NCBI GenBank assembly: GCA_944384585.1
Contig: CALWTY010000004.1
Coordinates: forward strand, 1,563-65,562
Source: an uncultured Clostridia bacterium
GTDB lineage: Bacteria > Bacillota > Clostridia > Oscillospirales > CAG-272
DNA length: 64,000 bases
Direction: 5' to 3'
Every line of letters starts with the position of its first letter. The stretch's first letter is position 1. The notes beneath the pieces were generated by a model. The model had not been told where the DNA came from and searched no databases. It saw only the letters and a program-made list of their open reading frames with translations. Positions 4,117 through 54,684 of this stretch are shown piece by piece. The position numbers and the translations under genes are program-made.

Positions 4117-5661
4117 ATGACGAATGTTCTTGAGTACCTTGAAAACGCGGTCCGCCTGACCCCCGATAAGATCTGCTATCTGGACGACGACTGCCGGATG
4201 ACCTTCCGCCGTGTGGCGGAGGAGGCGCGGGCGATCGGAAGCCTGCTTGCCCGCCGCGGCGTGTGCCGGAGGCCGGTCGCCGTCTTTATGAAAAAAGGCC
4301 CGCGCGCCGTCACCGCGTTCCTCGGCGCACTTTACGGGGGCTGCTTCTATGTTCCGCTCGACATTGAAATGCCGATGTTCCGGATCGAGCTGATTCTCGG
4401 GCTGCTCGGAGATTGCCCGATCCTCTGCGACGACGCTTCCCTCCCCGTGCTGAAAAAGCTCGGAAGGGAGGAGGACGCGGTCCTCTATGAGACCGCCGCG
4501 GCGGAGGAGACGGACGAGGAGGCGCTTGATGAGGTGAGACGGCACGGAATCGATACCGATCCCGTATATGTGCTGTTCACCTCCGGCTCGACCGGTATTC
4601 CCAAGGGAGTCATCACCTCGCATCGCGCCCTGATCGACTATGTCGATCACCTGTCGCAGATCCTGCGGGTCGATTCCGAATCGGTCTTCGGAAATCAGAC
4701 CCCGCTCTATACCGACGCCTGTCTCAAGGATCTCTATCCCACGCTGAAATGCGGCGCGACGACGGTTTTTATTCCGAAATCCCTCTTTTCCTTTCCGGTC
4801 AGGCTTCTGGAGTATCTCAATCGCCATCGGATCAATACCGTTTGCTGGGTCGCCTCGGCGCTCTCGATCGTTTCCTCGCTCGGCGCTCTTGATTCGGTGA
4901 AGCCCCGTGAGCTTCGCACCGTCGCCTTCGGCTCGGAGGTCTTTCCCGTGCGGCAGCTCCTGCTTTGGCAGAAGGCTCTTCCCGAGGCGCGGTTCATCAA
5001 TCTCTACGGCCCGACGGAATGCACTGGCTGCTGTTGCTTCTATGAGCTTGACCGCCCCTTTGAGACGGAGGAGGTCATTCCCATCGGCAAGCCCTTTCCG
5101 AACGCCGGCGTCTTTCTCCTTTCGGAGGAGGATCGCCCCGTCCCGCAGGGAGAGCTCGGCGAGATCTGCATCAAAGGAACGGGCCTTGCCTACGGCTATT
5201 ATAAGAATCCTCAGAGAACGGCGGAGGTCTTCGTTCAGAATCCTCTCAACGACGCCTACCCGGAGCGCATCTATCGGACGGGAGACCTCGGTCGCTTCAA
5301 CGAGCGGGGAGAGCTGATCTATGTGACCCGCAAGGATTTTCAGATCAAGCATATGGGGTATCGGATCGAACTGGGAGAGATCGAGGTGGTTTGCGCCGCC
5401 TGCGAGGGCGTATCGCTCTGCTGCGCGGTCTATGATCGTGAGAAAAAGCGCATCCTCCTCTACTATACCGGCGAAACGGAAAAAGGAACGCTGCTCGGTT
5501 ATCTCAAGGGAAAGCTGCCGCGGTATATGCTGCCGGCAGAGCTGATCCGGCTGCGCCAAATGCCGCTGACGCTCAATCGGAAGATCGACAGGAAGCGGCT
5601 GGAAACGGAGGGCGCGCCGGAGGAAGCGGCGGAGGAGAGCCGCCGACTGATTTCAGACTGA
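4117..5661 (+). CDS. Stand-alone amino-acid adenylation enzyme (DltA-like)
   Basis: LFTSGSTGIPKG, NLYGPTE, YRTGDLG, KHMGYRIELGEIE, NRKIDR core motifs. Confidence 0.9.
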   Translation: MTNVLEYLENAVRLTPDKICYLDDDCRMTFRRVAEEARAIGSLLARRGVCRRPVAVFMKKGPRAVTAFLGALYGGCFYVPLDIEMPMFRIELILGLLGDCPILCDDASLPVLKKLGREEDAVLYETAAAEETDEEALDEVRRHGIDTDPVYVLFTSGSTGIPKGVITSHRALIDYVDHLSQILRVDSESVFGNQTPLYTDACLKDLYPTLKCGATTVFIPKSLFSFPVRLLEYLNRHRINTVCWVASALSIVSSLGALDSVKPRELRTVAFGSEVFPVRQLLLWQKALPEARFINLYGPTECTGCCCFYELDRPFETEEVIPIGKPFPNAGVFLLSEEDRPVPQGELGEICIKGTGLAYGYYKNPQRTAEVFVQNPLNDAYPERIYRTGDLGRFNERGELIYVTRKDFQIKHMGYRIELGEIEVVCAACEGVSLCCAVYDREKKRILLYYTGETEKGTLLGYLKGKLPRYMLPAELIRLRQMPLTLNRKIDRKRLETEGAPEEAAEESRRLISD

Positions 5662-42502: not shown

Positions 42503-43675
42503 TCAGTTCTTTCCGACCTGCTCGTAGAGCGGGCTCATATCGCGGAGCCGCTGTACGATCGGCGGGAGCTTTTCGAGAATGTAATCAACGTCCTCTTCGG
42601 TATTTTCGTGAGAGAGCGTGAGACGGAGGGAGCCGTGCGCCTTTTCGGGAGGAAGCCCGATGGAGAGCAGGACGTGGGAGGGCTCAAGAGAGGCGGTCGA
42701 GCAGGCGGAGCCGGTCGAGGCACAGATCCCCGCCATATCCAACAGCAGGATCAGGCTTTCCCCTTCGATAAATTCAAAGGCGACATTGAGGTTTCCGGGC
42801 AGACGATGCTCCATCCCGCCGTTGATGCGGGAGTAGGGGATGCGGGAGACAATCTCCCGGGCAAGACGGTCGCGCATGGCGGCGATCCGTTCCATGTCGG
42901 GAAGCCCCTCCACGGCAAGCTCAAGCGCCTTGGCAAGACCGACGATATAAGCGACGTTTTCCGTCCCGCCGCGCTTGCCGCGCTCCTGTCCGCCGCCGTC
43001 GATGAGGTTGGCGATGCGCACGCCTGTTCTGACATAGAGTACGCCGATCCCCTTGGGGGCGTGGATTTTGTGACCGGAGAGGGCGAGCATATCGACTCCC
43101 AGCTCGGCGACGTTGACGGGAAGATTGCCGATTGCCTGGACGGCATCGGTGAAGAAGGTGATCTTGTGAGCCTTGGCGATTGCCGCCATCTCCCGGATGG
43201 GAAGCACCGAGCCGATCTCATTGTTGGCGTACATCATGGCGATCAGAACGGTATCGGGCCGAATGGCGGCCTCCAGCGCCTCCGGCGCGATCTGTCCGTC
43301 TGCGTCGACCTTGAGGTAGGTGATCTCGAAGCCTTCCTTTTTCAGAGAATCCATCGCGTGCAGCACGGCGTGATGCTCGTAGACTGTCGTGATGATGTGC
43401 CGGCCCTTTGCGGCGTTGGCGCGGGCGGCTCCCTTGATGGCCCAGTTGTCAGACTCCGAGCCGCAGGAGGTGAAGTATATCTCATTGGGCTTTGCCCCGA
43501 TCAGGGAAGCGATTTTCTCCCGTGCGGCGGCAATCGCCAGCGAGGAAGCGCGTCCGATCGAATAGAGGCTGGAGGGGTTTCCGTACTCCGACGAGAGATA
43601 CGGAAGCATTTCTTCCAGAACCTCCGGCGCGACCCGCGTGGTGGCGGCGTGATCGGCATATACGAATTTGGACAT
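42503..43675 (-). CDS. nifS: Cysteine desulfurase, NifS/IscS type
   Basis: DHAATT, TDAVQ, SGHKIHAPKG, STGSACST. Confidence 0.96.
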   Translation of the reverse strand: MSKFVYADHAATTRVAPEVLEEMLPYLSSEYGNPSSLYSIGRASSLAIAAAREKIASLIGAKPNEIYFTSCGSESDNWAIKGAARANAAKGRHIITTVYEHHAVLHAMDSLKKEGFEITYLKVDADGQIAPEALEAAIRPDTVLIAMMYANNEIGSVLPIREMAAIAKAHKITFFTDAVQAIGNLPVNVAELGVDMLALSGHKIHAPKGIGVLYVRTGVRIANLIDGGGQERGKRGGTENVAYIVGLAKALELAVEGLPDMERIAAMRDRLAREIVSRIPYSRINGGMEHRLPGNLNVAFEFIEGESLILLLDMAGICASTGSACSTASLEPSHVLLSIGLPPEKAHGSLRLTLSHENTEEDVDYILEKLPPIVQRLRDMSPLYEQVGKN

Positions 43676-43716
43676 ATGTGAACTCCTTTCGGAATAATCT
43701 TAATTGGTACGATTCT

Positions 43717-43745
43717 ATTGTATACCATTTTAGTGTACTTTTCAA
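43717..43745 (-). promoter_or_regulatory. Sigma-A promoter for nifS-nifU-mnmA
   Basis: TTGAAA-N17-TACAAT on the minus strand. Confidence 0.65.
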
Positions 43746-43945
43746 GAGCTTTGCGAAAAAAAACTGACTAAATTTCGGGCAAACGCGGCAGAATTTTTTG
43801 CCGCATTCCGAAAATAAGCCTCCGACCGCGGCGAACCCGTCGTTTTGCGACCCGGACAAACCGGGAAGGGGCTGCCTCTCTGCGGCGCACGGCGGCTTCG
43901 GATTTCTGCGGACGCCGCGCAAGTTTTCAGAAAATTCAAAGTCGA

Positions 43946-43999
43946 GGAACGCTTTTGGAACAGAAAAGGAACAGGACGGGAACGCCGGTTTGGTATAAT
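43946..43999 (+). promoter_or_regulatory. fab operon promoter with four phased heptamer direct repeats (SARP-type activator geometry)
   Basis: GGAACGC(43946)-TTTT-GGAACAG(43957)-AAAA-GGAACAG(43968)-GACG-GGAACGC(43979)-8 bp-TATAAT(43994); extended TG; no consensus -35. Confidence 0.75.
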
Positions 44000-44036
44000 T
44001 AGGGTAAATATTTTTTTGATGATACGGAGGCACATT

Positions 44037-44261
44037 ATGTTACTCGAAACGATTGCAAAGATTATTGCGGAGCGCACCGACTGCGACCCGGCGGAGGTAA
44101 AGCCGGAAAGCACCTTTGTTGAGCTGGGGATCGATTCTCTCGATACCGTGGAGCTGCTGATGAGTCTGGAGGATGAGCTCGGCATGGAGATCGAGCTGGA
44201 CCAGAAGGTTGAGACGGTGGGCGAGCTGATCGCCTTCATCGAGAAGAAGCAGCAGGCGTAA
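44037..44261 (+). CDS. acpP: Acyl carrier protein
   Basis: LGIDSLDTVELLM; GGAGG RBS. Confidence 0.93.
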   Translation: MLLETIAKIIAERTDCDPAEVKPESTFVELGIDSLDTVELLMSLEDELGMEIELDQKVETVGELIAFIEKKQQA

Positions 44262-44263
44262 TC

Positions 44264-45208
44264 ATGATTCGTTCCGAAATCTGTCGTTTGCTGGGGATCC
44301 GCTACCCGGTGTTTCAGGGCGGAATGGCTTGGGTGGCCGACGGCCGCCTGGCTGCCGCCGTCTCGGAGGGAGGCGGACTCGGCATTATCGCGGCCGGGAA
44401 CGCGCCCGGAGACTATGTGCGGGAGCAGATCCGCATTGCCAAATCCCTGACCGATAAGCCCTTCGGCGTCAATATCATGCTCCTCAGCCCGCATGCCGAC
44501 GAGGTGGCACAGGTCACGGCGGAGGAGAAGGTGGCGGTAGTGACCACCGGCGCCGGAAATCCTTCCAAATATATGGAGCTTTGGACCTCAAACGGAATCA
44601 AGGTGATCCCGGTGGTCGCTTCCGTTGCGATGGCAAAGCTCGTGACCAAGGCGGGCGCTTCCGCTGTCATCGCGGAGGGGGGAGAAAGCGGCGGTCATGT
44701 GGGGGAACTGACCACGATGGTGCTGGTCCCGCAGATCTGCGACGCGGCGCCTCTTCCCGTAATCGCGGCGGGCGGAATTGCCGACGGACGCGGCGTGGCC
44801 GCGGCCTTTATGCTCGGCGCCTGCGCGGTTCAGATGGGAACGCGCTTCCTGTCGGCGGAGGAGTGCAATATTCATCCCGTCTATAAGGAAAAAATCGTGA
44901 AAGCCACCGATCTCTGCACGATGGTGACGGGAAAGCGCCTCGGGCATCCCGTCCGAAGCCTCCGCACCCCCTTCGCCCGGAATTATCTGAAGGCGGAATA
45001 CGGCGGAGCGTCGGATGAGGAACTCGAGGAAATGGGCGTAGGCTCCGTTCGGCTTGCGGTTCAGGAGGGCGATCTGGAAAAGGGAACCTTCCTTGCCGGT
45101 CAGGCTGCCGCGATGGTGAAACGGATTCAGCCTGCTGCCGAAATCGTGAAGGAAGTGATGGAGGAGGCAGAGCCTCTTCTGATGAGGGCTTCGCAATGGG
45201 TAGAATAG
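44264..45208 (+). CDS. fabK: Enoyl-ACP reductase II
   Basis: QGGMAWVA, EGGESGGHVG, AAGGIADGRG, QMGTRF. Confidence 0.95.
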   Translation: MIRSEICRLLGIRYPVFQGGMAWVADGRLAAAVSEGGGLGIIAAGNAPGDYVREQIRIAKSLTDKPFGVNIMLLSPHADEVAQVTAEEKVAVVTTGAGNPSKYMELWTSNGIKVIPVVASVAMAKLVTKAGASAVIAEGGESGGHVGELTTMVLVPQICDAAPLPVIAAGGIADGRGVAAAFMLGACAVQMGTRFLSAEECNIHPVYKEKIVKATDLCTMVTGKRLGHPVRSLRTPFARNYLKAEYGGASDEELEEMGVGSVRLAVQEGDLEKGTFLAGQAAAMVKRIQPAAEIVKEVMEEAEPLLMRASQWVE

Positions 45209-46104
45209 CGTTTTTGTTTTCCGGACAGGGCGATCAGCACGCCGGAATGGGAAAGGAAATTGCCGATCGGTATCCTGCCGCCGCGGAGGTATTTTCTCTC
45301 TGCGACGGGATCCGCCCCGGCACCTCGACGCAATGCTTTGAGGGAAGCGAGGAGGAACTGAAGGAAACCGTGAATACACAGCCCTGCCTGTTTGCCGTCG
45401 AGACGGCGATGGCGGCGGTGCTGAAGGCGGAGGGGATTGCCCCGGAGGCCGTGGCGGGCTTTTCGCTCGGAGAGCTTGCGGCCTGCACCTGTGCCGGCAT
45501 TTTCGACTGCGCAGACGGCTTCCGCGCGGTCTGTCGCCGCGGCGAGCTGATGCAGCACGCCTCCGAGCAGACCGAGACGGCGATGGCGGCGGTCGTCAAG
45601 CTGTCAGAAGAGGCGGTGACCGCTCTGTGCGGCGGCTTTGAAGGGGTGTATCCCGTCAATTTCAACTGCCCGGGTCAGATCACCGTGGCGGGGCTTGCGA
45701 GCCGCATGGCGGACTTTACGGCGGCGGTCAGAGCGGCGGGCGGCAGAGCCATTCCGCTCAAGGTACGGGGAGGCTTCCATTCCCCCTTTATGCAGGAAGC
45801 GTCGGAGGGCTTTGCTGAGGTGCTGGACGGCATGAAGATCGGGCAGCCGAGTCTCTCGGTTTACTCGAATCTGACGGCAGAGCCGTATACCGGGGACGTA
45901 AAGGGACTGCTGTCCGCACAGATCTGTAACCCCGTCCGCTGGGAGCGGACGATCCGCAATATGATCGCGTCGGGGATCGATACCTTTATCGAAATCGGTC
46001 CCGGCAAGACGCTGACCAACATGATGGGCAAAATCGACGCGGGGGTCAGAGCCTGTTCTGCCTCCGAGCTGTCGGTCGTCCTTTCGGAGGTGGAAAAATG
46101 CTGA
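45196..46104 (+). CDS. fabD: Malonyl-CoA:ACP transacylase
   Basis: FSGQG, NTQP, GFSLGE, GGFHSP, EIGPG. Confidence 0.95.
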   Translation: MGRIAFLFSGQGDQHAGMGKEIADRYPAAAEVFSLCDGIRPGTSTQCFEGSEEELKETVNTQPCLFAVETAMAAVLKAEGIAPEAVAGFSLGELAACTCAGIFDCADGFRAVCRRGELMQHASEQTETAMAAVVKLSEEAVTALCGGFEGVYPVNFNCPGQITVAGLASRMADFTAAVRAAGGRAIPLKVRGGFHSPFMQEASEGFAEVLDGMKIGQPSLSVYSNLTAEPYTGDVKGLLSAQICNPVRWERTIRNMIASGIDTFIEIGPGKTLTNMMGKIDAGVRACSASELSVVLSEVEKC

Positions 46105-46826
46105 ACGGGAAGACAGCCGTCGTGACAGGCGGCAGCCGCGGCATCGGCAAGGCGATCGTTCTGAAGCTCGCTTCGCTGGGGGCGGACGTCGCGGTGCTTT
46201 GCGCCGGACGGCTTGACGCGGCGGAGGCGGTCTGCGCCGAATGCGTCGAGCGCTGCGGAGTGAAGGCAAAGGCATACTGCTGCGACGTTTCTGATTTTGA
46301 AAAGGCCAAGCAGACGGTCCTTGCCATCAAAGCGGAGTTCGGGACGGTGCATATCCTGGTGAACAATGCCGGCATCACGCGTGACGGCCTTGCCGCCATG
46401 ATGAAGGAAGAGGATTTCGACGCGGTCCTGGATACCAACCTCAAGGGCGCGTTCAATATGATCCGCCACTGCGTCGGAATGCTGATCCGCAACCGAAGCG
46501 GCTGCATCATCAATATCACCTCGGTCGCAGGGCTGACCGGCAACGCCGGGCAGTGCAACTATGCCGCCTCCAAGGCGGGGCTGATCGGGCTGACCAAATC
46601 GATCGCAAAGGAGCTTGCTCCGAGAGGAATCCGCTGCAATGCCGTCGCGCCCGGCTTTATCGACACCGAGATGACGGAATCCCAGACAGATAATCCTCTT
46701 CTTGCCGCCATTCCGCTCGGACGGATGGGGACGACCGAAGAGGTGGCGGAGGCGGTGGCGTATCTGGCCGAGGCCTCTTATGTGACCGGCGAGGTCCTCC
46801 GCGTTGACGGCGGGATCGCCATGTAA
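46098..46826 (+). CDS. fabG: 3-oxoacyl-ACP reductase
   Basis: TGGSRGIG, NNAGITRDG, NYAASKAG. Confidence 0.95.
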   Translation: MLNGKTAVVTGGSRGIGKAIVLKLASLGADVAVLCAGRLDAAEAVCAECVERCGVKAKAYCCDVSDFEKAKQTVLAIKAEFGTVHILVNNAGITRDGLAAMMKEEDFDAVLDTNLKGAFNMIRHCVGMLIRNRSGCIINITSVAGLTGNAGQCNYAASKAGLIGLTKSIAKELAPRGIRCNAVAPGFIDTEMTESQTDNPLLAAIPLGRMGTTEEVAEAVAYLAEASYVTGEVLRVDGGIAM

Positions 46827-46838
46827 GGAGAAACGATT

Positions 46839-48086
46839 ATGAATGAAACGAACAGACGTGTGGTGGTGACGGGGCTTGGCGCAGTGACGCCGGTCGGCAA
46901 TACCGTCGCGGAGAGCTGGGAGAGCCTGATCACCGGCAAAAACGGCATCGCTCCGATTACACGCTTTGATACGACCGATTCCAAAGCCAAGCTCGGCGCG
47001 GAGGTCAAGAACTTCAACCCTCTCGATTATATGGAAAAATCCGAGATGCTGCGCAGCGACCGCTATACCCATCTGGCGGTGGCGGCGGCGGAACAGGCCA
47101 TGAAGGACAGCGGGGTCGCCGGCAGCGTTGCGCCGGAGCGCTTTTCTGTCTATATCGGCGTCGGCATCGGCGGGATCAGCACGCTGGAAGCGGAGCATAC
47201 CAAGCTGCTGCAGAAGGGCGCGCGCCGCGTCTCCCCGCTCTTCGTTCCGATGATGATTCCGAATATGGCGGCGGGGACAATCGCCATCCGCTATCAATGC
47301 AAGGGAACGGCGATGCCGATCGTAACAGCCTGCGCCTCCGGCTCCAATGCCATCGGTGAGGCGGTTCGTCTGATCCGCCACGGCTATGCCGACGCGGTTA
47401 TTTCGGGAGGCAGCGAGGCTGCCGTGACCCCTCTTTCCATCGCGGGCTTCGTCAATATGCAGGCGCTTTCGGTTTCGGAGGATCCCGATGCCGCCTCGCT
47501 CCCCTTCGACCGTCGCAGAGGCGGCTTCGTGATCGGGGAGGGCTCTGTGGTGCTGGTGCTGGAGGAATATGAGCATGCGGTGTCGCGGGGCGCCCGGATC
47601 TACGGGGAAATCTGCGGCTACGGCTCTACCTGTGACGCGCATCATATCACCGCGCCCGATCCCGACGCAATCGGCGGCTCGGAGGCGATGAAAGCGGCAA
47701 TGCGGGAGGCGGGCTATACCGAGGCCGACCGCGTCTATATCAATGCCCACGGCACCGGAACTCCGATGAACGACCTGACCGAGACGGTCACCATCAAAAA
47801 GGCAATGGGAGAAGAGGCGGCGCGCAGGGCGCTCGTCAGCTCGACGAAATCGATGACGGGGCATATGCTCGGCGCAGCCGGCGCGGTCGAGGCGATGGCT
47901 TGTCTGTTGGCGCTCCGCGACGGGATCATCCCGCCGACGATCAATCTGCTCGAGCCAGATCCCGATTGCGATCTGAATTACACGCCCAACAAGGCGGTCA
48001 AGACGGAGATCGATCTTGCACTTTCCAACTCCCTCGGCTTCGGCGGACATAACGCATGTCTTGCCTTCCGTGCGGTCAGAGGCTGA
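46839..48086 (+). CDS. fabF: 3-oxoacyl-ACP synthase II
   Basis: TACASG, NAHGTGT, KSMTGHMLGAAG, NSLGFGGHN. Confidence 0.97.
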   Translation: MNETNRRVVVTGLGAVTPVGNTVAESWESLITGKNGIAPITRFDTTDSKAKLGAEVKNFNPLDYMEKSEMLRSDRYTHLAVAAAEQAMKDSGVAGSVAPERFSVYIGVGIGGISTLEAEHTKLLQKGARRVSPLFVPMMIPNMAAGTIAIRYQCKGTAMPIVTACASGSNAIGEAVRLIRHGYADAVISGGSEAAVTPLSIAGFVNMQALSVSEDPDAASLPFDRRRGGFVIGEGSVVLVLEEYEHAVSRGARIYGEICGYGSTCDAHHITAPDPDAIGGSEAMKAAMREAGYTEADRVYINAHGTGTPMNDLTETVTIKKAMGEEAARRALVSSTKSMTGHMLGAAGAVEAMACLLALRDGIIPPTINLLEPDPDCDLNYTPNKAVKTEIDLALSNSLGFGGHNACLAFRAVRG

Positions 48087-48098
48087 AAGGATCATGCT

Positions 48099-48536
48099 AT
48101 GAACGAATCTGAAATCAGAAAATATGCCGAGCTGATGAAGGAACTCGGCCTCACAAGGCTGGAGTTCAACGACGACAAGAAGGTCGTCCGGCTCGAGCGT
48201 GCGATTCCCCCTGCCGCCGCGCCGGTGAGCGCCGCTCCCGTTCCGCTGCAGCAGACCGTTCCTGCGGCGTCCACACCGGAGCAGCGCGATTATACAAGCG
48301 TCAGAGCCCCGATGGTCGGTGTCTTTTATTCCGCTCCCGCCGCCAATGCCGAGCCTTTTGTCTCGCCCGGCGACCGCGTGGAGAAGGGAAAGACCCTCTG
48401 CATCATCGAGGCCATGAAGCTGATGAACGAAATCTGCGCGGAGGAAAGCGGCGTGATCACCGAGGTCTGCGTCACCAACGGGCAGGTTGTGGAGTACGGA
48501 ACGGAGCTGTTTCGCTTCAGGAGGGAAAACGCATGA
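48099..48536 (+). CDS. accB: Biotin carboxyl carrier protein
   Basis: APMVGVFY, IEAMKLMNEI. Confidence 0.96.
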   Translation: MNESEIRKYAELMKELGLTRLEFNDDKKVVRLERAIPPAAAPVSAAPVPLQQTVPAASTPEQRDYTSVRAPMVGVFYSAPAANAEPFVSPGDRVEKGKTLCIIEAMKLMNEICAEESGVITEVCVTNGQVVEYGTELFRFRRENA

Positions 48537-48949
48537 ACAAAGAGGAGATCATGAAGCTCCTGCCTCACCGCGAGGATATGCTGCTTCTGGACGACGCCGG
48601 GCGGGATGGCGAGGAGGCGGTCGGGCACTACACCGTGCGGGGAGACGAATTCTTCCTGCGGGGGCATTTCCCCGGCAATCCGATCGTGCCCGGCGTGATC
48701 CTCTGCGAGATCCTGGCACAGTCGGCCTGCGTGCTGCTGGAAGGCGCGCTGACCGAGGGGCAGACGCCGGTTTATACCGGGCTTGATAAGGTTCGCTTCC
48801 GCAGCCCCGTCCGCCCCGGCGATACCATACAGACCCGCTGTCGGATCAAGCGGGCAAAGCATCCGTTCTACTTCGCGGAGGGGACGGCCTCGGTCGGAGA
48901 TCGGGTTTGCGTGACGGCGGAATTTTCCTTTGCCGTTACGGGGAGCTGA
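48533..48949 (+). CDS. fabZ: 3-hydroxyacyl-ACP dehydratase
   Basis: LPHR, GHFPGNPIVPGVILCEILAQ. Confidence 0.93.
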   Translation: MNKEEIMKLLPHREDMLLLDDAGRDGEEAVGHYTVRGDEFFLRGHFPGNPIVPGVILCEILAQSACVLLEGALTEGQTPVYTGLDKVRFRSPVRPGDTIQTRCRIKRAKHPFYFAEGTASVGDRVCVTAEFSFAVTGS

Positions 48950-48952
48950 ACG

Positions 48953-50260
48953 ATGTTTTCCAAAATTCTGATCGCCAATCGCGGAGAGATCGCCGTCCGG
49001 ATCATCCGTGCCTGCAAGGAAATGGGGATTGCCACCGTCGCCGTCTGCTCCGAGGCCGACCGCAATGCGCTGCACGCGGCGCTTGCCGACGAATGCTACT
49101 GCATCGGCCCTGCCGAGGCGCAGGAGAGCTATCTGAACGAAAACCGGATCATTGCAACGGCGCTTCTGGCCGGTGCGCAGGCGATCCATCCCGGATACGG
49201 CTTTCTCTCGGAGAATGCCCATTTTGCAAGGCTCTGCCGCAAGAACGGAATCGTCTTCATCGGCCCTGCGCCCGAGAGCATGGAGCGCCTGAGCGACAAA
49301 GCGGTTCTGAAAAAGCTGATTGAGAAGACGGGACTGACGGTTATTCCCGGTACGGAGGCGGTCTCCTCCGTTGCAGAGGCGACGGAGGCGGCGCGCGCCA
49401 TCGGGTATCCCGTGATGCTCAAGGCCTGCTCCGGCGGCGGCGGACGGGGAATTCGCCTGATCCGATCGGAGGAAGAGCTTGAGCCCGCCTATCTTCAGGC
49501 GACGGCGGAGGCACAGACCTCCTTCGGAGACGGCTCCGTTTATCTTGAAAAATACATTTATCCCGCAAGGCACGTCGAGTTTCAGATCATGGCCGACGAG
49601 CAGGGCAACGTCGTCTGCCTCGGAGAGCGGGACTGCTCACTGCAGAGACGGAATCAGAAACTGCTGGAGGAGACGCCGTCGCCGGCGGTCTCCGGGCAGA
49701 TGCGGCAGCGGATGACGGAGCTGGTGATCGAGGCGGTGAAGACGATCGGATATGTCGGCCTCGGCACGCTGGAATTCCTCCTCGACCGGGAGGGCAATTT
49801 CTGGTTTATGGAGATGAATGTCAGGCTTCAGGTGGAGCATTGCGTGACGGAAATGCTCACCGGCATCGATCTTGTCAAGTGGCAGATCCGCATTGCGGCG
49901 GGGATCGGGATCGGATTCAGTCAGCAGAGCATCCGCTTCTCCGGCTCTGCCATCGAATGCCGCATCAACGCGCAGAACTGCGGGACGCTTCGGATGCTAC
50001 ATGTCCCGGGCGGACCCTTCGTCCGCTTTGATACCTGTCTCATCGAGGGAACGACCGTTACCCCCTACTACGACCCGCTGCTCGGGAAGCTGATCGTTCA
50101 CGCCGCGACAAGGGAGGAGGCGCTTCGGAAGATGCGCGCCGCACTCTGTGAGCTGGTGATCGACGGGATTTCCACGAATATCGAGGAGCAGCTTCGCTTT
50201 GTCGATGACGAGCGCTTTATCCTCGGAAACTATGATCTGACCTTTATGGGAAGCCGATGA
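48953..50260 (+). CDS. accC: Biotin carboxylase
   Basis: LIANRGEIA, HPGYGFLSEN, ERDCSLQRRNQK, EMNVRLQVEH. Confidence 0.97.
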   Translation: MFSKILIANRGEIAVRIIRACKEMGIATVAVCSEADRNALHAALADECYCIGPAEAQESYLNENRIIATALLAGAQAIHPGYGFLSENAHFARLCRKNGIVFIGPAPESMERLSDKAVLKKLIEKTGLTVIPGTEAVSSVAEATEAARAIGYPVMLKACSGGGGRGIRLIRSEEELEPAYLQATAEAQTSFGDGSVYLEKYIYPARHVEFQIMADEQGNVVCLGERDCSLQRRNQKLLEETPSPAVSGQMRQRMTELVIEAVKTIGYVGLGTLEFLLDREGNFWFMEMNVRLQVEHCVTEMLTGIDLVKWQIRIAAGIGIGFSQQSIRFSGSAIECRINAQNCGTLRMLHVPGGPFVRFDTCLIEGTTVTPYYDPLLGKLIVHAATREEALRKMRAALCELVIDGISTNIEEQLRFVDDERFILGNYDLTFMGSR

Positions 50261-50324
50261 CGGCGGGCGGCGTACCGGAAGGACGATTCCGCATTCCCCG
50301 ACGGGGTGCCGATAGGGAGGCAAT

Positions 50325-51188
50325 ATGCCACTGTTTAATTTTTTGAAACCGAAAAATCAGCTTGAGGAAGGGGGACGCAGCGCAGCGCCCGTCCAGCAGG
50401 ACGAGGGCGAGCCGGTCAGAACCTGTCCCAACTGCCGCAAGGAAATTCCCATCAGTCGTCTGCAGAACAATCGCCTCGTCTGCTCCTGCGGCCATCATTT
50501 CAGAATGCGGGCAAGACAGCGCATTCTGATGATTACCGACAAAAACACCTTTTCGGAGCTGTTTGCCGAGGTGCAGTCAAGGGACAGCATCGGCTTCCCC
50601 GGATATCCCGAAAAGCTCGAAACCGTCCGCGCCGCCAGCGGCGAGGAGGAGGCGGTCATCTGCGGAACGGCGATGATCGGAAAGCAGAAATGCTGCCTCT
50701 TCGTGATGGAGCCGACCTTTATGATGGGAAGCATGGGGAGCGCCGTCGGTGAAAGGATCACACGCCTTTTTGAGTACGCGCTGGAAAATCGCCTGCCGGT
50801 CATCGGTTTTACCGTTTCGGGAGGAGCGCGGATGCAGGAGGGGCTTGTTTCCCTGATGCAGATGGCCAAGACCAGTGCCGCCGTAAGGCGCCATTCCGAT
50901 GCGGGACTGCTTTATATCGCGGTGCTGACCGATCCCACAACGGGAGGGGTCACCGCCAGCTTTGCCATGGAGGGCGATATTACATTGGCCGAGCCCGGCG
51001 CAACCGTCGGCTTCGCCGGTGCCCGGGTGATTGAGCAGACGACAAGAAAGCAGCTGCCGAAGGGCTTCCAAACGGCGGAATTCCTTCTGGAGCATGGCTT
51101 TGTCGACGCCATTGCGGACCGGAAGGAGCAGAAAAAGCTCCTGACCGAGCTGCTGAAGCTGCATAACGGAGGTGTCGGGAATGAGTGA
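50325..51188 (+). CDS. accD: Carboxyltransferase beta subunit
   Basis: CPNC..CSC Zn finger, MGSMG, SGGARMQEG, PTTGGVTASFA. Confidence 0.96.
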   Translation: MPLFNFLKPKNQLEEGGRSAAPVQQDEGEPVRTCPNCRKEIPISRLQNNRLVCSCGHHFRMRARQRILMITDKNTFSELFAEVQSRDSIGFPGYPEKLETVRAASGEEEAVICGTAMIGKQKCCLFVMEPTFMMGSMGSAVGERITRLFEYALENRLPVIGFTVSGGARMQEGLVSLMQMAKTSAAVRRHSDAGLLYIAVLTDPTTGGVTASFAMEGDITLAEPGATVGFAGARVIEQTTRKQLPKGFQTAEFLLEHGFVDAIADRKEQKKLLTELLKLHNGGVGNE

Positions 51189-51987
51189 AACGGCCTATGA
51201 CAAGGTAAAACTTGCAAGAAAAAACGACCGGCCGACCGGTCTTGACTATATCCGAGGGATTTTCAAGGGATTCATCGAGCTGCACGGAGACCGTCGCTTC
51301 GGTGATGATCCCGCCGTGGTCGGCGGCCTTGCCTGCATCAGCGGCATCCCGGTGACGGTGATTGCCATTGAAAAGGGTCATACGGCGCGGGAGCGCGCCA
51401 TGCGGAATTTCGGCGCACCGAATCCGGAGGGATATCGGAAGGCGCTTCGCCTGATGAAGCAGGCCGAAAAATTCGGACGCCCCGTCGTTTGCCTGATCGA
51501 TACCTCCGGCGCATTCTGCGGAATCGGCGCGGAGGAACGGGGACAGGGGCAGGCGATTGCCGAAAATCTCACGGAGATGTCGGCGCTGCGCGTTCCGATC
51601 CTGTCGATCCTCGTCGGAGAGGGCGGCAGCGGCGGCGCTCTGGCGCTGGCGGCGGCAGACCGCGTCTTTATGCTGGAGAACGCCGTTTATTCCGTGATTT
51701 CCCCCGAGGGCTGCGCCAGCATCCTCTGGAAGGACGCGACCAAGGCGGAGGAAGCGTCGGAGCATCTCCGACTGACGGCGCAGGATGCGCTTTCGCTCGG
51801 TATCATCGAGAGGATCATCCCCGAAGCCGACATCGGCACCAAGGTCTTTTACGATCGTCTTCGGACCCTCATCGGTGAGGAAATCAAGGCGCTGATAAAG
51901 ACTCCCGGGCTTGTCTCGCAGCGGTATGCCCGCTTCCGCGGCATTGGCTCGGACGAAGCCGCCAAACTTACTGCGAATGAAGGATAA
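51181..51987 (+). CDS. accA: Carboxyltransferase alpha subunit
   Basis: ELHGDR, PEGYRKALR, IDTSGA, GEGGSGGAL, SVISPEGCASILW. Confidence 0.96.
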   Translation: MSETAYDKVKLARKNDRPTGLDYIRGIFKGFIELHGDRRFGDDPAVVGGLACISGIPVTVIAIEKGHTARERAMRNFGAPNPEGYRKALRLMKQAEKFGRPVVCLIDTSGAFCGIGAEERGQGQAIAENLTEMSALRVPILSILVGEGGSGGALALAAADRVFMLENAVYSVISPEGCASILWKDATKAEEASEHLRLTAQDALSLGIIERIIPEADIGTKVFYDRLRTLIGEEIKALIKTPGLVSQRYARFRGIGSDEAAKLTANEG

Positions 51988-51990
51988 ACC

Positions 51991-53637
51991 ATGAGTATAT
52001 ACCAAAAATTTTGCCGCGAGACGGTCGACGACGCGGGACGGCTCGTTCACTTCGAGCTTGACTTTCCGGAGCATTTCAATTTCGGATATGACGTGGTCGA
52101 TGCGATCGCGGAGCAGACCCCCGACAAACGGGCGCTGGTCTGGTGCAATACCGAGAACGAGGAGCGCTTCTTCAGCTTCGGAGAGCTGCGCGACCTCAGC
52201 AATCGGGCAGCCAACGTACTCCGTGCGGCGGGTCTGAAGCGGGGGGACAGAGTCCTGCTCATCCTCAAGCGTCATTATGAGTATTGGATCGCCGTCCTCG
52301 CGCTGCATAAGCTGGGCATCACCGCCATCCCCGCGACCCATATGCTGACCGAAAGCGATTTTGAATACCGCCTGAAGGCATCCGGAGCGGCCGGCGCGAT
52401 CTGCACCCCGCAGAACGGCGTCCCGGAAAAGCTGGCGGCGGCGGTCAGGAAGACGGGGGTTTCCTGTAAGCTGTGGTGCGTGCAGCAAAAGATCGAGGGC
52501 TTTTCCGATTTCACAGAAGAACTGAAAAACGCCTCTCCCTTCCTTCCCCGAATCGCAACCGACGTCTCCGATCCGATGCTTCTCTACTTTACCTCCGGAA
52601 CGACAGGATATCCCAAGGGGGTCATTCATGACTTCTCCTATCCTCTTGCCCATATCGTCACGGCGAAATACTGGCAGCAGGCGGAGGAGGGAGGCCTTCA
52701 TTTTACCGTGGCGGAAACCGGCTGGGGCAAGGCGTCCTGGGGCAAGATCTACGGACAGTGGCTGGTCGGGAGCGCCGTCATGGTCTTTGATTTCGATAAT
52801 TTCGATCCGCGTCAGCTTACGGCGGTGATCAATCGCTACGGTGTGACCTCCTTCTGCGCCCCTCCTACCGTATACCGTTATCTCGTCAGAAAGGAGCTTC
52901 CTCCGATGCCTACCCTCCGCCATGCCTCGACGGCTGGGGAGATGCTGGCGCCCCGTGTTTTCCGTCTCTTTACCGAGAAGACCGGGATTCCGCTCTGCGA
53001 GGGCTACGGGCAGACCGAGACCGCCATGCTTCTCGGCAATCTCAAAGGGGAAGTGCCGGTCGACGGTTCGATGGGGCGGGAATCCCCGCTGTATCATGTC
53101 GAGCTGCGCAACGACGACGGCAGTCCGACACCGAGAGGCGAGGTGGGAGAGCTTGTCGTCGTGCCGCCGGCGGGCGGCCGTCAGCCCGGCCTCTTCAGCG
53201 CCTATCTCGATAATGAGGAGCAGTACCGCTATGTCTGGCGCGGCGGAGTTTATCATACCGGAGACGTTGCCTGGCAGGATGAGGAGGGAGTCTATTGGTT
53301 TCACGGCCGCTTTGACGATATCATCAAGACGGGCGGCTTCCGCGTCGGTCCGTATGAGATCGAAAACGTGCTGATGAAGCATCCCTCCGTGGTGGAATGC
53401 AGCGTGGTCGGAATTCCCGATCCTCTGCGCGGGCAGGCCATTAAAGCCGTGATCGTCCTTTCTCCCGAATATGCCCCCTCAAGGGAGCTTGAAAAGGAGA
53501 TCCGCGACTTCTGCAACGCAAGGCTTGCCGAGTATAAATGGATCCGCTCCATCGATTTTGCCGCCGAGCTTCCCAAAACCATCAGCGGGAAGATCAGGAA
53601 AAACGTTCTTCGCGGCACTGCCGACGAGGAAACGTGA
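51991..53637 (+). CDS. AMP-forming short/medium-chain acyl-CoA synthetase (ACSM/AAE-like)
   Basis: YFTSGTTGYPKGV, AETGWGKASWGKIYGQW, EGYGQTET, YHTGD, PKTISGKI. Confidence 0.9.
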   Translation: MSIYQKFCRETVDDAGRLVHFELDFPEHFNFGYDVVDAIAEQTPDKRALVWCNTENEERFFSFGELRDLSNRAANVLRAAGLKRGDRVLLILKRHYEYWIAVLALHKLGITAIPATHMLTESDFEYRLKASGAAGAICTPQNGVPEKLAAAVRKTGVSCKLWCVQQKIEGFSDFTEELKNASPFLPRIATDVSDPMLLYFTSGTTGYPKGVIHDFSYPLAHIVTAKYWQQAEEGGLHFTVAETGWGKASWGKIYGQWLVGSAVMVFDFDNFDPRQLTAVINRYGVTSFCAPPTVYRYLVRKELPPMPTLRHASTAGEMLAPRVFRLFTEKTGIPLCEGYGQTETAMLLGNLKGEVPVDGSMGRESPLYHVELRNDDGSPTPRGEVGELVVVPPAGGRQPGLFSAYLDNEEQYRYVWRGGVYHTGDVAWQDEEGVYWFHGRFDDIIKTGGFRVGPYEIENVLMKHPSVVECSVVGIPDPLRGQAIKAVIVLSPEYAPSRELEKEIRDFCNARLAEYKWIRSIDFAAELPKTISGKIRKNVLRGTADEET

Positions 53638-53643
53638 AAAATT

Positions 53644-53682
53644 ACCGCTTTTCCCGGAAAAGGGAAAGGCGGTGCTTTTTTT
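53644..53682 (+). terminator. Terminator of the fab operon
   Basis: ACCGC-TTTTCCC..GGGAAA-GGCGGT followed by T7. Confidence 0.7.
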
Positions 53683-53718
53683 GTCGGAGGATTCGGGGGG
53701 AAAACCTTTCGGGAATGA

Positions 53719-53745
53719 TTGACATTTTCGGGGAATATGATATAA
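53719..53745 (+). promoter_or_regulatory. Promoter of the PAS-SARP regulator
   Basis: TTGACA-N15-TATAAT with extended TG; TTTCGGGAAT direct repeats at 53707 and 53726 flank the -35. Confidence 0.55.
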
Positions 53746-53829
53746 TGGTATCCGTAACGGGGAAAATTCCCCGCAAGAGTCCTCCCGCAGCACGGGAAAC
53801 CGCGCTGCTGCCGTAGACCTGGAGATATC

Positions 53830-54684
53830 ATGGATCATTTTCTGACGAATGCCGAAGAGGTTTTCAGCCGCCATATCAGCGGCTTTCATCTGTATATTCT
53901 GAAGCCGTCGATACGGCTGTCCTATGTCAGCGAAAGTCTTTGCCGTCTGACCGGCTACACAAGAGAGGAGCTTCTCGATCGGGATACCGATATCTACTCC
54001 GCGCTGCTGCATCCCTCCGATGCGCCGCTGTTTTCGGAATTCTTAAGAAGGCTGGCCTCGGAAGAGAAGATGCAGACTGCGCAGTATCGGCTGGTACGGA
54101 AGGACGGATCGCTGATCCATGTCAGCGAAACCGCCTCCTGCGGGCGTCTTTCCGACGGTACGCCGGTCGCGTATTGCGTACTGGTGGAGCTTACCCCGAT
54201 GAAAGGCGGCGCGGAGCAGAGTCAGAAGCCGCCGCTGCCTTCCGGTCCCTTGCCGCTGCCGACGGCAAAAAAGGTCTACGTCCGCACCTTCGGCTATTTC
54301 GACGTCTTCATCAATGAGATTCCCATCGCGTTCCGCAATCAGAAATCGAAGGAACTGCTGGCGCTCCTGATCGATCGCCGCGGCGGCTATGTCTCCTCGG
54401 AGGAGGCGATCAGCTATCTCTGGGAGAACGAGCCCATCAATCAGGTCACGATGGCGCGCTACCGAAAGGTCGCAATGCGTCTGAAGCTGATTCTGGAGGA
54501 ATATGGGATTTCCGATATTGTCAGAACCGTCAACGGCAAGCGCTGCATCGTGCCGGGAAAGGTGCGCTGCGATCTCTACAATTATTTGTCGGGAGAGGAA
54601 AAATATTCCCAGCTCTTCAAGGGAAGCTACCTGACCAATTACAGCTGGGGCGAGGTGACGCTCGCCGAGTTGTCGGGGGTGTGA
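53830..54684 (+). CDS. One-component regulator: N-terminal PAS domain + SARP-type (OmpR-like) winged helix with short BTAD-like tail
   Basis: YVSESLCRLTGYTREEL..LLHPSD..YRLVRKDGSLIHV (PAS); VRTFGYFDVF..KSKELLALLIDRRGGYVSSEEAISYLWE..FKGSYLTNYSW; no receiver domain. Confidence 0.8.
   Translation: MDHFLTNAEEVFSRHISGFHLYILKPSIRLSYVSESLCRLTGYTREELLDRDTDIYSALLHPSDAPLFSEFLRRLASEEKMQTAQYRLVRKDGSLIHVSETASCGRLSDGTPVAYCVLVELTPMKGGAEQSQKPPLPSGPLPLPTAKKVYVRTFGYFDVFINEIPIAFRNQKSKELLALLIDRRGGYVSSEEAISYLWENEPINQVTMARYRKVAMRLKLILEEYGISDIVRTVNGKRCIVPGKVRCDLYNYLSGEEKYSQLFKGSYLTNYSWGEVTLAELSGV

Follow-up and report, generated by a model that had tools for sequence, protein, structure and literature searches.

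Phased GGAAC repeats at a -35-less fatty-acid synthesis promoter of a gut Clostridia bacterium and a candidate PAS/SARP-like regulator

Two repressors, FabT (MarR family) and FapR, account for what is understood of membrane fatty-acid synthesis control in Firmicutes; their targets are palindromes or inverted repeats, and their signals are acyl-ACP or malonyl-CoA. To our knowledge, all characterised Firmicute fab regulators are repressors and many gut Clostridia have neither FabT nor FapR. How, then, is a fatty-acid synthesis operon transcribed when its promoter has direct repeats and no -35 element? This question is raised by a locus in a chicken-gut Clostridia genome (GenBank assembly GCA_944384585.1), which we analyzed within a stretch of 64,000 nucleotides (contig CALWTY010000004.1, positions 1,563 to 65,562), hereafter the window. 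The operon is of the same type as those controlled by FabT and FapR, i.e., acp-fabK-fabD-fabG-fabF-acc. In contrast to FabT and FapR systems, however, the promoter carries direct repeats in an activator geometry, and no MarR or FapR domain was matched by Pfam or NCBIfam among the operon or flanking open reading frames. The features of the locus are collected in Table 1.

Table 1. Features of the acpP promoter, the operon and its surroundings (positions in the window).
Feature	Coordinates	Strand	Basis or remark
NifS-like class-V aminotransferase gene, divergent, upstream of acpP	42503-43675	-	Pfam/NCBIfam
Promoter-like TTGAAA-17-TACAAT of the NifS-like aminotransferase gene	43717-43745	-	sigma-70 scan
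A/T-rich stretch ttttcagaaaattcaaagtcga 5' of repeat 1	43924-43945	+	maybe UP-element-like, function inferred
Repeat 1, GGAACGC	43946-43952	+	family consensus GGAACGC; G at position 6 in 49/53, C at position 7 in 42/53
Repeat 2, GGAACAG	43957-43963	+	consensus GGAACnC (53 non-redundant sites)
Repeat 3, GGAACAG	43968-43974	+	over the -35 position; degenerate in many relatives (GGAAy-like)
Repeat 4, GGAACGC	43979-43985	+	consensus GGAAC[A/G]G; -10 begins 8 nt downstream
Extended -10, TGgTATAAT	43991-43999	+	TG at 43991-43992, TATAAT at 43994-43999
Predicted transcription start, near 44006	44005-44007	+	inferred from the -10 alone
Ribosome-binding site of acpP, GGAGG	44026-44030	+	read from sequence
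Start codon of acpP, ATG	44037	+	read from sequence
acpP-fabK-fabD-fabG-fabF-accB-fabZ-accC-accD-accA-acyl-CoA synthetase (MbcS-like) operon	44037-53637	+	Pfam and NCBIfam matches
Intrinsic terminator-like hairpin with T-run, operon end	53643-53684	+	follows the operon
Own promoter of the regulator gene, TTGACA-16-TGaTATAAT	53719-53746	+	12/12 matches, TG present
Candidate repeat-binding regulator, 284 residues	53830-54684	+	PAS 22-119, Pro-rich linker, SARP-like winged helix about 147-247, short helical tail

The acpP promoter (43946-43999) consists of the heptamers GGAACGC, GGAACAG, GGAACAG and GGAACGC, separated by the spacers tttt, aaaa and gacg and followed by cggtttgg (8 nt) and TATAAT. 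The sequence confirms the four GGAAC(G/A)(C/G) heptamers with 4-nt spacers that the preliminary description had placed at 43946, 43957, 43968 and 43979. Its statement that there is no usable -35 also holds: a -35 hexamer 16-18 bp from the -10 is missing, the best match is 1/6 and, because the -35 is absent, a sigma-70 consensus scan called no promoter at the TATAAT. The promoter of the candidate regulator gene provides an internal contrast. Its perfect -35 and -10 indicate that the host sigma factor uses canonical promoters, and the combination of a perfect consensus with insulation by a terminator suggests constitutive synthesis of the sensor.

The repeated arrangement rather than the GGAAC core sets the site apart. 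In the window, GGAAC on its own shows no enrichment (126 occurrences versus about 140 expected). The phased triple GGAAC-N6-GGAAC-N6-GGAAC with at most one mismatch occurs only at the acpP promoter, both in the window and across the whole 2.29-Mb genome, and 100 dinucleotide shuffles gave no match. Elsewhere in the genome, the double GGAAC-N6-GGAAC was found in one place only, within coding sequence, and genome-wide phased-repeat scans revealed no further regulon members in the source genome. Since GGAAC-containing 11-bp tandem repeats are common across bacteria, the repeats might have arisen by chance or local tandem duplication and have no regulatory role. However, this reading sits badly with the empty shuffles, with spacers that differ and so do not form a simple tandem array, and with the conservation of the heptamers, but not the spacers, at the equal promoter position in dozens of taxa. 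As far as sequence comparison can decide, the conservation data effectively refute it already, and we give it next to no weight.

An RNA element was also considered and rejected, as Rfam returned no match in 43600-44100 and the CTTTT...AAAAG palindrome spanning spacers 1 and 2 is specific to the source genome and not kept in a congener. Immediately 5' of repeat 1, 22 nt are A/T-rich in the window and in its relatives (53 non-redundant sites). TTyA recurs there at about -22 and -11, separated by A-runs and sharing the 11-bp phase of the repeats. This stretch could be an UP-like element, bent DNA or a set of extra weak sites.

The geometry had been likened to that of Streptomyces antibiotic regulatory proteins (SARPs), and it does agree with the published rule for SARP sites, in which direct repeats follow one another at 11 or 22 bp and the most 3' one stands 8 bp from the -10 (PMC10936776). 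As at acpP, the direct repeats of AfsR, ActII-ORF4 and DnrI lie on one DNA face, over a poor or absent -35 (PMC10936776). There are also clear differences: the heptamer is GGAAC(G/A)(C/G) rather than of the TCGAG type, there are four repeats instead of two or three, and the host is a Firmicute with the site serving FASII primary metabolism, whereas SARPs act in actinobacterial antibiotic gene clusters. A second likeness is to class-II sites of the OmpR/PhoB family (the pho boxes of PhoB and the sites of Bacillus subtilis PhoP), where head-to-tail winged-helix protomers on direct repeats of about 11 bp replace the -35. In B. subtilis, PhoP replaces it with four TT(A/T/C)ACA repeats, and four repeats standing in for a -35 recall both PhoP and the pho boxes of PhoB.

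Lack of conservation in relatives would have refuted the earlier account; instead, the site is conserved. In an alignment of 19 acpP-fabK promoters from different genera, the heptamers are retained while the spacers have drifted, and the -10 is TATAAT or TAAAAT in all 19. Among congeners, only G012 encodes a regulator ortholog (73% identical); there, the regulator gene and the site lie on different contigs. The acpP-fabK promoter of G012 comprises GGAACGC, GGAACAG, GGAACAG and GGAACGG, with spacers aagt, aatg and ctaa, followed by acttttgg and TATAAT; compared to the window, the heptamers and the 8-nt gap are retained and the spacers altered. Equal architecture is found before acpP in an ENA scaffold (L023), in which the operon ends with a ligase, a PAS protein and the regulator, and the repeats also precede acpP in two GTDB genomes (L044 and L105). 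The latter two, together with L082, were the informative ones among the matches listed in a contig scan for four exact GGAAC repeats, which otherwise returned mostly 11-bp tandem repeats of unrelated phyla.

We used 53 non-redundant orthologous sites for motif statistics, and these both extend and correct the initial picture. The four-repeat architecture stands for the window; in many lineages, however, repeat 3 is degenerate, and the conserved core is formed by repeats 1, 2 and 4. Repeat 3 was not demanded by the search pattern and nevertheless has G at position 1 in 48/53 sites and at position 2 in 42/53; with A-rich positions 3 and 4, it appears as a weak fourth in-phase site. The spacers between heptamers are unconserved. 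A gap of exactly 8 nt between the last heptamer and the -10 is found in the window and in 39/53 sites, but it is 9 nt in the other 14/53. Similarly, the extended -10 claimed for this promoter is present in the window and is not a family feature, with the TGn extension occurring in only 7/53 sites. The best -35 match reaches no more than 2/6 in 40/53 sites and never 5/6 or above, which is below random expectation. Judging from these sequences, most of the orthologous promoters should be weak without an activator.

A search for the phased repeat upstream of acp-fabK in genomes carrying an ortholog of the protein encoded at 53830 had been named as a check. We surveyed 401 genomes evenly drawn from the order of the source, of which 24 encode the DNA-binding domain at 55% identity or above. 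A strict pattern (four GGAAC, N10, TATAAT, at most 3 mismatches) matched 10 genomes, all within these 24, compared to one genome for its reversed control; eight of the ten sites are directly 5' of acp-fabK. This pattern was dropped, as it missed seven true sites in further regulator-positive genomes that deviate by a degenerate repeat 3, by a gap of 9 nt, or in both respects. The relaxed pattern R1-N6-R2-N17-R4-N10/11-TAWAAT, applied without mismatches, matched 17/401 genomes at one site each: 17 of the 24 regulator-positive genomes carry it and none of the 377 others (Fisher p = 1e-24). The reversed control of the relaxed pattern gave no match in the 401 genomes.

Site and regulator gene lie on one contig in 16 of the 17 genomes; in the exception (G332) they are on separate contigs because that of the regulator ends first. 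Three arrangements were observed. The regulator gene is either about 11 kb 3' of the site on the same strand, after the operon as in the window, or divergent from acpP (G062, G194 and G308), or itself directly downstream of the site (G355). In a metagenome scan with the relaxed pattern, we found at least 120 loci; among the matches listed, 104 of 115 assessable loci immediately precede acp/fabK and 11 do not, while five were too short. In G355 (C34:23690-23744) and in the metagenome loci L250 and L284, the relaxed site stands before a PAS-rich regulator gene with no acp nearby, which suggests autoregulation in this lineage.

Co-occurrence and linkage are merely correlative, and the cassette looks mobile or patchy, with FabK in just three of 19 congeners: the source (G000), G012 (91% identical) and G008 (61%). 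The repeats could therefore be a real operator of some other DNA-binding protein, e.g., an OmpR-family response regulator, with the PAS/SARP-like gene only sharing the FASII cassette. We consider this quite improbable. No DNA-binding gene other than the PAS/SARP-like one shows consistent linkage to the site, and this linkage holds across three gene arrangements; similar repeats precede paralogous regulator genes without fab genes (in G355, and in L082 before birA and a paralog); and in G012 the site and the regulator are both kept despite being unlinked. As a separate observation, the L082 repeats (4383-4420; four to five phased copies of GGAAC) lie 5' of a biotin protein ligase gene (BirA-like, PF03099) that is followed by the regulator paralog gene, apparently split over frames. 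This hints that the regulator family also controls biotinylation of AccB.

The C-terminal region of the protein itself gives weak sequence matches to Trans_reg_C, AfsR and EmbR; the Pfam Trans_reg_C score (16.8 bits) is below the cut-off of 26.2. A profile of this domain ranked AfsR first by sequence, with the recognition helix within the alignment. Foldseek searches with a model of the full-length protein returned PAS/LOV matches only, so the C-terminal 140 residues (145-284) were modelled alone with AF2 (pLDDT 80). The top match of this domain in the PDB was AfsR in a transcription initiation complex (8hvr_I, E = 2e-5), along with 8k60 and EmbR of Mycobacterium tuberculosis; superposition on EmbR (2ff4) gave a TM score of 0.65 and an rmsd of 2.5 over 111 columns. 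The next-best matches were the effector domains of PhoB, ArlR and SaeR, with E values of about 1e-3. The DNA-binding fold is thus closest to AfsR (8hvr, 8k60) and EmbR, in common with SARPs.

The resemblance to SARPs does not extend to the rest of the protein. No bacterial transcriptional activation domain (BTAD) was matched by Pfam at E values up to 10, and the chain continues for only about 40 residues past the winged helix, a tail modelled as two or three short helices with low pLDDT. Because the full BTA domain is missing, the protein is SARP-like but not a complete SARP. Where SARPs have a C-terminal NOD/TPR region, this protein has an N-terminal PAS sensor. Unlike OmpR/PhoB regulators, it has no receiver domain with a phospho-acceptor Asp (Pfam and NCBIfam give only PAS 22-119 N-terminally, and the model is of a PAS fold), and no partner kinase was found in the domain annotation of the window; with PAS as its input, it forms a one-component system. 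More than 400 matches define the family, in which the PAS-like modules are variable and number one to four, whereas a C-terminal module spanning about 135 residues is highly conserved (70-79% identity across genera). Some entries in the protein database (P0074, P0103 and P0045) fuse a biotin carboxylase fragment to this C-terminal module; although probably artefacts of gene calling or assembly, they still place the regulator gene beside acc genes.

These findings are best accommodated by a model in which the repeats are the operator of the one-component PAS/SARP-like regulator, acting as an activator. We regard this model in full as probable, while binding, the sign of regulation, stoichiometry and ligand remain inferred. 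With transcription starting near 44006, the repeats would extend from about -60 to -21 in a promoter whose -10 is good but which lacks a -35. Protomers arranged head-to-tail on one helix face may make up for the contact that the absent -35 cannot provide, recruiting or positioning RNA polymerase in a class-II activation of the kind shown for the SARP domain of AfsR and for PhoB. Repeats 3 and 4 would then adjoin sigma region 4, while repeats 1 and 2, with the upstream A/T-rich stretch, could promote cooperativity in binding or an interaction with the alpha C-terminal domain. Binding would be modulated through the PAS domain by a ligand that is unknown, a lipid-pathway metabolite being the most plausible candidate, and the regulator would be made from its own consensus promoter. 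The details of polymerase contact cannot equal those of AfsR, because the BTA domain, missing here, supplies much of the contact in AfsR.

The same site permits the opposite sign of regulation. The regulator might repress, covering the -35 region and the spacer and thereby blocking polymerase at a promoter driven by its -10 (here an extended one) until a ligand releases it, in the manner of FabT/FapR feedback with another fold. The site overlaps the core promoter, and occupancy of the stretch between -60 and -21 might just as well shut polymerase out; TGgTATAAT in the source genome can work without a -35 and might support basal, activator-independent transcription; the BTA activation domain is missing; and repression would be in keeping with every characterised Firmicute fab regulator that we know of. 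It would also be unusual for an essential housekeeping operon to rely on an activator. However, the TGn extension is present in only 7/53 orthologous promoters and a usable -35 in none, which leaves little activity to repress, and head-to-tail repeats ending a conserved 8-9 nt before the -10 represent the geometry of SARP activators. As most orthologous promoters lack both a -35 and an extended -10, we favour activator dependence over repression of a self-sufficient promoter and regard the latter as unlikely, though not to be dismissed.

Neither experiments nor transcripts lend the activator model support. In four RNA runs of chicken-gut metatranscriptomes, fragments of the locus amount to a few short contigs, which are too sparse for placing the transcription start of acpP. 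One contig spans 43843-43993, and we count it against the activator model. The dependence on a winged-helix activator that the preliminary description inferred is supported by comparative evidence, with the corrections given above, and all checks made here are in agreement with it. What the data show is that the site exists and is conserved, that it co-occurs exclusively with the regulator and is linked to it, and that the DNA-binding domain has an AfsR/EmbR-like fold; direct binding, and activation as opposed to repression, are inferences only.

Fatty-acid synthesis genes that need an activator have precedents in FasR (TetR family) of Mycobacterium and Streptomyces and in FadR (GntR family), which acts on fabA and fabB in Escherichia coli. 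Their folds and operator types are unrelated to those described here. Long-chain acyl-CoA relieves the DNA binding of FasR and FadR, whereas no ligand is known for the protein encoded at 53830. We tentatively propose, without claiming that the balance of evidence yet tips in its favour, that this protein, a PAS/SARP-like one-component activator without a receiver, responds to some metabolite of the lipid pathway (acyl-ACP, acyl-CoA, malonyl-CoA or free fatty acid) by turning on a self-contained FASII cassette devoid of FabH. It would do so through a four-repeat operator that replaces the -35. If true, this would be the first SARP-type activation outside actinomycetes and the first to control primary metabolism, and would add a third, activator-based logic of fab control in Firmicutes to those of FabT and FapR. 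A literature search, which left most subscription journals outside its coverage, found no published description of the regulator or the operator.

The FASII cassette is distinctive in its content and distribution. FabH (TIGR00747) was not matched anywhere in the 95%-complete source genome, although control genomes do match; the operon of this genome ends with a gene for an MbcS-like short/branched-chain acyl-CoA synthetase (51991-53637). Composition gave no sign of horizontal transfer, as there is no GC shift over 36-62 kb of the window. In G008, FabK lies in a different FASII cluster, with a MarR-family gene just upstream of acp. The patchiness of FASII within the genus could reflect either gain of the cassette or widespread lipid auxotrophy. 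Operon, primer-activating ligase, promoter and regulator move as a set with a patchy distribution, and the cassette is therefore relevant to the question of which gut Clostridia synthesize their own lipids and which rely on scavenging. More broadly, the locus defines both a cis element and a candidate trans factor for an activator-based circuit of another kind, in a geometry that is precise and can be tested. It also widens the range of SARP/OmpR-type -35 replacement, adding anaerobic gut bacteria and a one-component protein coupled to PAS, and may offer a compact, ligand-controlled promoter/regulator pair for genetic tools in Clostridia.

Two further groups of sites lie outside the fab context. 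Five metagenome contigs (L195, L239, L243, L279 and L286) share an identical site, GGAACAATCAC GGAACAATACC GTACCATTCAC GGAACAATCAGTGCT TATAAT, which is followed not by acp but by small unannotated open reading frames of mobile-element- or phage-like character. In two surveyed genomes (G131:C1:35649-35702 and G196:C11:839839-839892; L149 and L148), a gene for a 1110-residue paralog with a DNA-binding domain 55% identical to that of the regulator is directly followed by a variant site, GGyAC/GGAAC/GGAAC/GGAAT and then TATACT. This variant precedes genes for a coiled-coil protein and a signal-peptidase-I-like protein rather than fab genes.
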